Origin: Escherichia coli
GTDB lineage: Bacteria; Pseudomonadota; Gammaproteobacteria; Enterobacterales; Enterobacteriaceae
Assembly (NCBI RefSeq): GCF_003334255.1
Contig: NZ_QOWU01000180.1
Length of the DNA: 978 nucleotides
Reading direction: 5' to 3' (one strand)
Made by a program: the position numbers and the translations under genes. The stretch's first letter is position 1. Each line of letters starts with the position of its first letter. Shown here one piece after another: positions 1 to 978 of the stretch. The notes under the pieces are model-generated. The model had not been told where the DNA came from and did not search any database. It saw nothing but the letters and a program-made list of their open reading frames with translations.

Positions 1-230
1 TCTGCGTTGCGCAGGCAGGATCTGGCCTCCACGGATTGTCCGGCCCACCATACAGCGGTGGCTGCATTGACGGTTCCACCGTTGCGTTCTGAATCCACCG
101 GGTCGATGAGTTTCTCAAACTGTTTGCCCAGCTTTCCGGTGAACGGGTCGAAAAACACCGCGCCAATCGCGAATATGACTGCGTCCGGTCCGGTACCCAA
201 TGTTTCGGTGTCGATCATGAGATGGTTCAC
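1..230 (-). CDS. Putative DEDD-family (DnaQ-like) 3'-5' exonuclease, N-terminal part; gene continues beyond window position 1
   Basis: Minus-strand frame is open from 230/218 to position 1 (72 codons from the ATG, no stop). Translation from ATG at 218-216: MIDTETLGTGPDAVIFAIGAVFFDPFTGKLGKQFEKLIDPVDSERNGGTVNAATAVWWAGQSVEARSCLRNA. Asp-Thr-Glu at residues 3-5 followed by a hydrophobic stretch matches the Exo I motif of DEDD exonucleases; this is motif recognition only, no search was run. In-frame GTG at 230-228 overlaps the upstream stop (GTGA) and sits 7 nt after GGAGT (plus 238-242); the ATG at 218 is 19 nt from that site, so GTG-230 is the better-supported start. The plus-strand ORF 7..264 on the same DNA has a low-complexity S/P/T/C-rich product and no ribosome-binding site. 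Confidence 0.55.
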   Translation of the reverse strand, partial: MNHLMIDTETLGTGPDAVIFAIGAVFFDPFTGKLGKQFEKLIDPVDSERNGGTVNAATAVWWAGQSVEARSCLRNA

Positions 231-460
231 TGTGTGCACTCCTTCTGTTCGGCGTTGTTCGTGAGCGTTGCAATCAGTCGTTCAATGGATGAGCAGGTTT
301 CCTCCGGGGAGGTGTGCTTCTCTCTCGCTGTGTCAACCAGGTCACGCAGCAATTCGCAGATATGCGCACGCTCGGCTTTTCTTGCGGCCATGCTGATATG
401 TGCATGATGGTTAGCTGGTCTGGCGGCTATTTCTCTGCCGGGTGATTCGGCTGTTCTCAT
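227..460 (-). CDS. Hypothetical small hydrophilic protein, 77 aa, function unknown
   Basis: ATG at 460-458 is preceded by AGGAG (plus 468-472, minus strand) with a 7-nt spacer; TGA stop at 229-227. Product: MRTAESPGREIAARPANHHAHISMAARKAERAHICELLRDLVDTAREKHTSPEETCSSIERLIATLTNNAEQKECTQ, charged and probably helical, with a His-rich N-terminus. The track's 85-aa version (227..484) needs a TTG start at 484 with no ribosome-binding site. I do not recognise the family. Confidence 0.7.
   Translation of the reverse strand: MRTAESPGREIAARPANHHAHISMAARKAERAHICELLRDLVDTAREKHTSPEETCSSIERLIATLTNNAEQKECTQ
238..242 (-). promoter_or_regulatory. Shine-Dalgarno-like GGAGT for the exonuclease-like gene, embedded in the 3' end of the upstream CDS
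   Basis: Minus-strand GAAGGAGT (plus 238-245) lies 7 nt upstream of the in-frame GTG at 230-228. Confidence 0.45.
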
Positions 461-496: not shown

Positions 497-518
497 GGCA
501 TGAATGCCTTAATTAATT
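497..518. repeat. Inverted repeat GGCAT-GA-ATGCC (497-508) directly adjoining the palindrome TTAATTAA (509-516); candidate protein-binding site or RNA hairpin
   Basis: Read directly from the sequence: 5-bp arms GGCAT/ATGCC with a 2-bp spacer, next to the self-complementary TTAATTAA / AATTAATT (509-518), in the AT-rich spacer upstream of the 77-aa gene. Confidence 0.3.
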
Positions 519-565
519 GTTCGTATGTTTTCTGGTGTTATTGCGTTCTTATTTGAAGCTTAAGG

Positions 566-661
566 TTATTCCCAGATCTTCAGGGCTAACCAGATAAGCG
601 CACACACCTGAAATATCAGCCACACACTGGCAATGGTGAGTATTGCTTTTACATTCTTCAT
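566..661 (-). CDS. Putative small hydrophobic (single transmembrane) peptide, 31 aa
   Basis: Minus-strand ATG at 661-659, TAA at 568-566. Product: MKNVKAILTIASVWLIFQVCALIWLALKIWE, with Lys-flanked N-terminus and a roughly 20-residue hydrophobic core. It begins 12 nt after the stop of the 41-aa ORF and in the same frame. No strong Shine-Dalgarno site (upstream is AGCGAAAACGTT), so translation would depend on coupling or reinitiation. Below the ORF-track size cutoff. Confidence 0.35.
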   Translation of the reverse strand: MKNVKAILTIASVWLIFQVCALIWLALKIWE

Positions 662-673
662 AACGTTTTCGCT

Positions 674-799
674 TTATTTACGGCGTTTATCGCCGGTAAA
701 GAATAATTCGATATCCTTCAGTGTGTGGATAATTCGCATAATGCCGATTGCCATAAGTACGGAGATAATCAGAATTAGCCATGAAAGGAATATGATCAT
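674..799 (-). CDS. Putative small membrane protein, 41 aa (N-terminal transmembrane helix plus basic C-terminal tail)
   Basis: Minus-strand ATG at 799-797 overlaps the TGA stop (798-796) of the upstream gene as ATGA; AGGGG (plus 807-811) lies 7 nt upstream; TAA at 676-674. Product: MIIFLSWLILIISVLMAIGIMRIIHTLKDIELFFTGDKRRK. Below the ORF-track size cutoff; the plus-strand ORF 633..815 is antisense to it. Confidence 0.5.
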   Translation of the reverse strand: MIIFLSWLILIISVLMAIGIMRIIHTLKDIELFFTGDKRRK

Positions 800-978
800 G
801 CTGCCACCCCTGTGAAGTAAGGCTCAACAATTTCACCTTCAAACAGTTCTGTCATAATCGACTTTAATTCTTCCAGTGCTTCACGGTCATCGCTGCCCAG
901 CGCGCAGTTGTATAGCCCCATAATTGCGCCGCGCAGTGAGTTACGAAGGCTTTCATCCTTAGTTACGCCCCGGTTTGC
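796..978 (-). CDS. 3' end (C-terminal 60 aa) of a protein-coding gene of unknown function; start lies beyond window position 978
   Basis: Minus-strand frame is open from 978 to the TGA at 798-796 (60 sense codons). Product: ANRGVTKDESLRNSLRGAIMGLYNCALGSDDREALEELKSIMTELFEGEIVEPYFTGVAA, a plausible amphipathic helical sequence. The plus strand over 816-978 is broken by frequent stops. Family not recognised. Confidence 0.6.
   Translation of the reverse strand, partial: ANRGVTKDESLRNSLRGAIMGLYNCALGSDDREALEELKSIMTELFEGEIVEPYFTGVAA
807..811 (-). promoter_or_regulatory. Shine-Dalgarno-like AGGGG for the 41-aa ORF, inside the 3' end of the upstream CDS
   Basis: Minus-strand AGGGG followed by 7 nt (TGGCAGC) and then ATG at 799. 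Confidence 0.45.

Follow-up and report, generated by a model that had tools for sequence, protein, structure and literature searches.

Small membrane proteins are under-annotated, and many of them prove to be regulators of larger membrane machines. Those of 30–50 amino acids, such as AcrZ, MgrB and MgtS or the exclusion protein gp15 of phage HK97, consist of a single helix that binds a larger membrane protein. In phages P2 and 186, the Cox-side early operon is off in the lysogen and on for lytic growth. The locus analysed here, a stretch of 978 nucleotides from Escherichia coli (contig NZ_QOWU01000180.1 of assembly GCF_003334255.1; hereafter the window), is part of such a Cox-side early operon, carried on the minus strand, of a P88-like E. 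coli prophage (Xuanwuvirus, P2 family). It contains an open reading frame (ORF) for a predicted membrane protein of 41 amino acids (ORF41), a second ORF for a candidate membrane peptide of 31 amino acids (ORF31), and an ORF of 60 codons on the plus strand over the same DNA. The explanation that best accommodates the observations is that ORF41 is a real gene, ORF31 a probable second peptide and the plus-strand ORF a by-product; taken as a whole, this explanation is considered probable, with appreciable room for error in its second part.

Among named phages, Escherichia phage P88 and its fellow members of Xuanwuvirus (Peduoviridae) come closest. Three E. coli contigs match the window without a difference, and 21 complete E. 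coli chromosomes match it at 92–95% identity. In the annotated loci, the integrase and the C-type repressor genes are followed divergently by Cox, DUF4761, DUF4754, a 41-amino-acid hypothetical protein and a 77-amino-acid protein, and further downstream by a 3'-5' exonuclease, a ParE-like protein and a Dam methylase, on to the replication endonuclease (gpA). This order, from Cox through DUF4761, DUF4754 and ORF41 towards gpA, bears out the assignment to a prophage early operon made in an earlier reading of the window from its letters alone (the sequence-only reading).

ORF41 and its partner gene DUF4754

ORF41 (674..799, minus strand; peptide MIIFLSWLILIISVLMAIGIMRIIHTLKDIELFFTGDKRRK) is held with high confidence to be a real membrane-protein gene coupled to the DUF4754 gene upstream, given its homology, conservation and hydrophobicity. 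Its start codon ATG (799..797) overlaps the stop codon TGA (798..796) of the DUF4754 gene in the sequence ATGA, and a Shine-Dalgarno-like AGGGG (807..811, minus strand), located within the coding end of the DUF4754 gene, precedes the ATG by exactly 7 nucleotides. These features, along with the coordinates of all three small ORFs and the gap of 12 nucleotides between ORF41 and ORF31, are present just as the sequence-only reading had described them; its remark that the two minus-strand ORFs had been missed by the ORF track reflects only the length cut-off of that track. Of the DUF4754 gene itself, which encodes 80 amino acids and was identified by the RefSeq annotation of homologous loci, PF15946 and phrog_2549, the window holds the 3' part (796..978, minus strand), the start being located beyond the window.

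The association of the two genes proved to be invariable. A DUF4754 alignment searched against the IMG/VR viral contigs yielded 80 loci with a DUF4754 identity of 41%–100%, and the ATGA overlap followed by an ORF41 homolog was present at every locus with a DUF4754 homolog (80/80). The same overlap follows the DUF4754 gene in all annotated RefSeq loci examined, and ORF41 homologs, mostly of 37–45 amino acids, stand after the DUF4754 gene in every lineage examined. Diverged loci retain a purine-rich motif at the Shine-Dalgarno position (GGAGG, AGAGG, AGAGAGGG or GAAGGGG), with a weaker Shine-Dalgarno-like CTGGG(A/G)AA in the P88-type loci, and the motif persists despite differences in the DUF4754 residues encoded by the same nucleotides. 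By sequence, DUF4754 and ORF41 thus behave as an invariant two-gene module.

Selection on ORF41 was analysed over the first 33 codons in all fetched loci, representing 56 nucleotide haplotypes and 42 peptides. None of the 56 haplotypes has a stop codon in the ORF41 frame, and 48 of the 114 variable events are synonymous (P<5e-5 versus random placement). In deep pairwise comparisons, the ratio of nonsynonymous to synonymous differences (pN/pS) was 0.2–0.45, with synonymous differences of 0.7–0.8, near saturation. Residues M1, S6, W7 and I24 are invariant, and A17, G19, K28, E31 and F34 nearly so; the conserved part of the tail comprises R22, K28, E31 and F34-T35-G36, followed by a basic end. 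Beyond residue 33 the tail is variable, with forms of 37 and 41 amino acids, four frameshifted tails giving 45 amino acids and one truncation to 30 amino acids. The 45-amino-acid form, found at four loci and represented by two peptide variants, arose by a one-nucleotide frameshift near codon 33, which replaces the FFTGE tail by ...FSLxNNxxNKTxx, and at a single further locus the homolog is cut to 30 amino acids. It seems from the frameshifted and truncated copies either that the helix of ORF41 matters more than its tail, or that these copies are decaying.

For the most favourable run of 19 residues in ORF41, the apparent insertion energies add up to -4.3 kcal/mol on a simple biological scale. 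Since no lysine or arginine precedes the helix and six follow it, the N-terminus is expected to be outside and the tail cytoplasmic, so that ORF41 is predicted, from its residues, to be a single-pass N-out/C-in membrane protein with the helix within the first 20 residues. The proposal that the locus encodes small membrane proteins therefore stands for ORF41, on its predicted topology and conservation, while for ORF31 (see below) the coding evidence is only moderate.

The window peptide is identical to a variant in our peptide set (P0001) and matches P88 gp07 in tblastn. It shares with the gp07-like group the similarity over the full length, the position and ATGA overlap after DUF4754, and the predicted helix with a charged tail. 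The NCBI Prokaryotic Genome Annotation Pipeline calls the minus-strand 41-amino-acid ORF in every RefSeq match, which dispels the concern that automated annotation might choose the wrong strand. In RefSeq the product is named "hypothetical protein" (e.g., WP_016232595) and in phage P88 gp07 it is named "membrane protein". The annotation is uneven between records: the homolog is annotated in P88, vB_EcoM-705R2 and RefSeq E. coli genomes, and it is intact and unannotated in OR565851 (Shae_phiSM, 2453-2566 of our locus L009) and NC_049344 (phage 520873). ORF41 is therefore already annotated as a gene, and what is new is only the firm link to DUF4754. The idea of an undescribed family survives in a reduced form: ORF41 has its database entries (WP_016232595; P88 gp07), and it has no curated family. 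A profile search of 1.84 billion representative proteins gave six ORF41 clusters at E<=1e-10, all of 37–45 amino acids, whose named members come from Escherichia, Shigella, Salmonella and 'Enterobacteriaceae', plus one Citrobacter phage. The family is narrow, yet common within E. coli, where several variants each occur on hundreds of contigs, some of them on at least 1,000.

The DUF4754 protein was modelled by AlphaFold2 as a bundle of three helices plus a C-terminal tail that is flexible and conserved (predicted local distance difference test score of 89.5), the tail ending in a conserved I-E-P-Y motif. BLAST homology of the window to other prophage lineages spans positions 673..828, whereby the boundary coincides with the ORF41 stop codon. 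Mosaicism at gene boundaries is usual in phages, and the small-ORF region is best explained as the place where the conserved left-hand block of the early operon ends. A different relation is seen on the upstream side, where ORF41 keeps 85–90% identity even if the DUF4754 proteins of the compared loci are only about 25% identical. Such DUF4754 alleles (MIEAYKIL... versus MTRNYKEI..., about 25% identity) were seen beside near-identical ORF41 copies at four loci, and all diverged alleles retain (I/V)-(E/K/T)-P-(Y/F) near the C-terminus. This contrast suggests that recombination breakpoints lie immediately upstream of ORF41, or that the two genes of the module evolve at very different rates.

In the proposed mechanism, ribosomes ending the DUF4754 gene would restart at the ATGA overlap, aided by the Shine-Dalgarno-like motif, and so produce ORF41. 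Judging from its position after Cox, the module would be made early in lytic growth, only once the prophage repressor is lifted. ORF41 would then insert in the inner membrane, and might there bind a host inner-membrane protein or anchor the three-helix DUF4754 protein at the membrane; its action would presumably be part of the early host takeover or of the exclusion of other phages. A role of the module as an early-lytic membrane modulator is thus put forward tentatively, and we give it rather less than an even chance. It is a guess by analogy, since no family match and no paper were found, and several negative results weigh against it. ORF41 has no family in Pfam, PHROGs, NCBIfam or PADLOC, and these collections gave no useful match for ORF31 either. 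Titles and abstracts on Xuanwuvirus, P88 and P2-like early operons contained nothing on ORF41 or ORF31, and the literature search returned no papers on DUF4754. Moreover, Foldseek matched the DUF4754 model in the PDB only to generic helical bundles (E>=0.39). Current understanding is not overturned by these results, as ORF41 is already in the databases. Being a fixed DUF4754 partner across a genus of P2-family prophages common in E. coli, it offers a testable pairing for both proteins.

ORF31 and the 132-bp insertion

Directly behind ORF41, the window contains a lineage-specific insertion of 132 bp (542..673, minus strand), which is bounded by AATAA direct repeats at 678..674 and 542..538, so that the junction is ambiguous within 5 nucleotides. 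The segment is precisely absent from seven sister loci with the same flanking genes, in which ORF41 joins the same leader and the same 77-amino-acid gene. Four other lineages also read TAAATAAC straight after ORF41. Because both the sister loci and these lineages have that sequence directly after ORF41, the segment is a derived insertion. It was found in 21 of 5,426 complete E. coli genomes, only in this context and in one sublineage. The tandem arrangement of two small ORFs, described in the sequence-only reading, is therefore not a conserved one: ORF31 is a lineage-specific add-on within the insertion. A search for the source of the segment gave only chance short matches within about 150 related loci. 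Its guanine-plus-cytosine content is 0.42 (for a very short segment), compared to 0.37 in both ORF41 and the leader and 0.51–0.57 in the flanking larger genes. Like a phage moron, the segment is extra DNA between genes that are adjacent in related phages; simple consensus patterns, which weak signals could escape, revealed no promoter or terminator of its own within 542-673.

ORF31 (566..661, minus strand; peptide MKNVKAILTIASVWLIFQVCALIWLALKIWE), a candidate membrane peptide of 31 amino acids in the window and 33–34 in other haplotypes, starts 12 nucleotides after the ORF41 stop codon in the same reading frame, with only TAA and four codons (S-E-N-V) between the two. If that stop were read through (window 662-676), a two-helix protein of 77 amino acids would result, and the 12-nucleotide spacing is kept in all haplotypes seen.

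Several observations suggest that the frame is coding. The ATG and the open frame are kept in all haplotypes seen (12/12). The most diverged haplotypes, at three loci and about 85% identical, carry conservative replacements, and one of them (L050) has an in-frame insertion of an ATA codon. Over the first 28 codons, the ORF31 frame shows a synonymous excess, with 16 silent changes among 31 variable events (P=0.0008). No such excess is seen in the remaining five frames, one of which is the antisense frame that shares its wobble positions (P=0.38–0.96), and none of the three plus-strand frames is free of stops. When first-order Markov sequences were generated with the segment's composition, 5.4% of the trials had an ATG-initiated ORF of at least 31 amino acids on that strand, and 0.01% had one whose helix was equally hydrophobic. 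The insertion energy of the helix is -1.1 on the scale that gave -4.3 kcal/mol for ORF41.

The strongest competitor is that ORF31 is not a gene at all, the 132-bp segment being a non-coding insert, either a recombination leftover or a leader element, with a fortuitous open frame, which would leave ORF41 as the only real gene. A good deal of evidence weighs on this side. ORF31 and its segment are absent from the sister lineages and from all other prophage types. The ORF has no Shine-Dalgarno sequence, its ATG being preceded by AAAGCGAAAACGTT, and it is unannotated in all 21 RefSeq genomes that carry the segment; gene finders called it only where a contig began there, i.e., at contig ends. Its C-terminus is rewritten by a one-nucleotide indel (KIWE versus KNLGII), and the helix has received the radical substitutions L8H and A21D. 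When only the closest clade is considered, the synonymous excess loses significance (P=0.09), and a neutral sequence would have stayed free of stops with a probability of 0.29. The event test, moreover, treats variable sites as independent, which is not strictly so, and the ORF31 sample is small. Searches for relatives were negative in that tblastn found none in the phages, and degenerate patterns run against viral contigs, metagenomes and 100,044 species genomes returned only the same sublineage plus one chance match in an archaeal metagenome-assembled genome.

A non-coding insert does not readily explain why the synonymous excess is confined to the ORF31 frame, why the one codon-sized insertion is in frame while ATG and open frame persist throughout the haplotypes, or why a hydrophobic helix that composition-matched random sequences almost never produce should be there. 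Nor is an alternative non-coding role visible. An RNA element within the insertion was considered and dropped, as the segment together with the leader folds no better than shuffled sequences (z=-0.3) and Rfam matched nothing in the whole window at E<=10. Overall, the non-coding explanation keeps roughly one chance in three by our estimate, and ORF31 is judged probably, and by no means securely, a translated gene under selection. It is a plausible unannotated gene confined to one sublineage.

If ORF31 is such a gene, it would most likely be made by restart: ribosomes terminating at the ORF41 stop, 12 nucleotides upstream, would resume translation at its ATG, and the product would be a second, fast-evolving single-helix membrane peptide. 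The fullest version of this account is that ORF31 is a very young membrane-protein gene, which arrived with or arose in the 132-bp insertion, is translated by restart and is under purifying selection, beside a DUF4754–ORF41 module, consisting of a soluble three-helix protein and its membrane anchor, that acts on a host membrane target. Taken with all its parts, that version is speculative and, on balance, unlikely; if true, it would make gene birth traceable in a phage operon. The presence or absence of ORF31 among near-identical prophages is, in any case, a natural experiment with an unannotated second peptide.

Toxin, lysis and antisense readings

According to the next explanation, one or both ORFs would be small membrane toxins of type I (in the style of Hok, TisB or Ldr) controlled by an antisense RNA; the sequence-only reading had named small membrane toxins among the possibilities. 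The general look of the peptides, which are short and hydrophobic with a basic end, agrees with it, and a weak antisense promoter-like site lies on the plus strand at 748-775. Promoter-like sites in the window are, however, at the chance level (2 found versus 1.3 expected). No toxin model matched either peptide (NCBIfam at E<=1, Pfam at E<=10), and no antitoxin RNA of Rfam (Sok, Rdl, Sib, IstR and others) was found anywhere in the window at E<=10. Type I toxin loci are organised differently: ORF41 lacks a separate leader, and at 80 of 80 loci it shows the coupling architecture within a long operon. The same reading had noted the lack of resemblance to Hok, Ldr, Ibs, ShoB, TisB and GhoT, and this was confirmed, as neither ORF41 nor ORF31 matches these or any Pfam or NCBIfam model. 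Nothing points to a toxin–antitoxin arrangement, and the toxin explanation is regarded as very improbable.

Still less probable is a function of ORF41 in lysis, as a holin, an antiholin or a spanin-like protein. The predicted single transmembrane helix and the charged C-terminal tail would be compatible with such a function. Rather than in a late lysis cassette beside an endolysin gene, though, ORF41 is placed in the early operon, after Cox and ahead of the replication gene; it matches no holin or spanin family and is always paired with the soluble three-helix protein DUF4754.

That the plus-strand ORF (633..815, 60 amino acids) is the real gene and the minus-strand ORFs its shadows can practically be dismissed: it is the longest ORF over this DNA and seems to be enriched in synonymous changes (pN/pS 0.25; event test, P=0.003), but this enrichment is the expected artefact of wobble positions common to ORF41, its frame contains stops in 24 of the 56 ORF41 haplotypes versus none in the ORF41 frame, and internally in phages P88 and Shae_phiSM, high divergence favours the sense frame (pN/pS 0.32–0.42 versus 0.72–0.75), its ATG lies inside the 132-bp insertion and is thus missing from many loci, and the product has no hydrophobic segment of membrane grade and is oriented against the operon. 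RefSeq annotation never calls this ORF, which is an artefact, a harmless by-product of hydrophobic codons on the opposite strand.

The comparison of synonymous changes in the minus- and plus-strand frames, suggested with the sequence-only reading as the way to tell the two apart, was carried out and did not discriminate for ORF41. In the close clade, pN/pS was 0.27 in the ORF41 frame versus 0.25 in the plus-strand frame. Because the plus-strand frame shares its third-codon (wobble) positions with ORF41, it inherits the excess of silent changes, and such a comparison therefore cannot separate the gene from its shadow; the stops in homologs decide. Stops in the minus-strand frame with a conserved plus-strand ORF had been named as the outcome that would speak against ORF41, and the reverse pattern was found. 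The practical warning is that comparing synonymous changes will not tell a gene from an antisense frame that shares its wobble positions.

Neighbouring features and comparison with known systems

The next gene of the operon (227..460, minus strand) encodes the 77-amino-acid hypothetical protein known from the RefSeq annotation and from its match to phrog_22206. Among its homologs at six further loci, several have a 9-nucleotide in-frame deletion near the 5' end, which gives 74 amino acids. In the leader between the small ORFs and this gene, RNA folding predicted a small hairpin, GGCA-UUCA-UGCC (497..508, minus strand), with a run of U 18 nucleotides later. In other lineages (seen at eight loci, e.g., at about 3085-3100 of locus L007), a 5-bp hairpin UCCGC-N4-GCGGA followed by GG(U/G)AUUC stands 30–60 nucleotides after the ORF41 stop and before variable downstream genes. 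All cells of its alignment can pair (75/75), with compensatory double changes (C-G to U-A) at two positions and G-U wobble changes at three. Since no run of U follows it, this hairpin is not a classic terminator. The hairpin of the window, found at an equivalent place, is possibly homologous to it, the alignment being ambiguous.

Two further genes of the prophage lie outside the window. Downstream, between the exonuclease and Dam methylase genes (7412-7639 of locus L001), a gene for a 75-amino-acid 'ParE family toxin-like protein' is annotated with no obvious antitoxin gene adjoining it; the gene is absent or was not called in several otherwise identical loci. Between Cox and DUF4761 (1752-2189 of locus L013, on the minus strand of that locus), there is an ORF of 145 amino acids without a family match. 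In many loci it is called on the opposite strand from the early operon, and other lineages have different genes in its place. This ORF may be an accessory gene that the prophage expresses.

Among the described systems, P88 gp07 (YP_009113050) and its E. coli RefSeq relatives (WP_016232595, WP_001537134, WP_000021661 and others) are direct homologs of ORF41, with 61–100% identity, and share its position after DUF4754, the ATGA overlap and the helix-plus-tail layout. The P88 form differs in being 37 amino acids long, without the final DKRRK, and its 'membrane protein' label is a prediction only.

In coliphage 186, fil and dhr resemble ORF41 by position only. They are small, non-essential, host-acting genes which follow the switch genes in a P2-family early operon, and they are succeeded by the terminator tR1, a structured element, and then by variable accessory genes ahead of the replication gene. 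When the sequences were inspected, their products, Fil (75 amino acids) and Dhr (66 amino acids), resembled neither DUF4754 nor ORF41; judged in the same way, they are not membrane proteins.

The type I toxins (Hok/Gef, Ldr, Ibs, ShoB, TisB and DinQ) are like ORF41 and ORF31 in size and hydrophobicity. ORF41 departs from them in that it matches no profile, has no matching antisense RNA, lacks both a separate leader and a separate promoter, and is coupled within an operon. With the small membrane regulators such as AcrZ, MgrB and MgtS, ORF41 has in common a conserved helix face (S6, W7, A17 and G19) and a tail as would be expected of a binder. These regulators are not homologous to it and have their own promoters, whereas ORF41 stands second in a phage early module, coupled to the gene before it.

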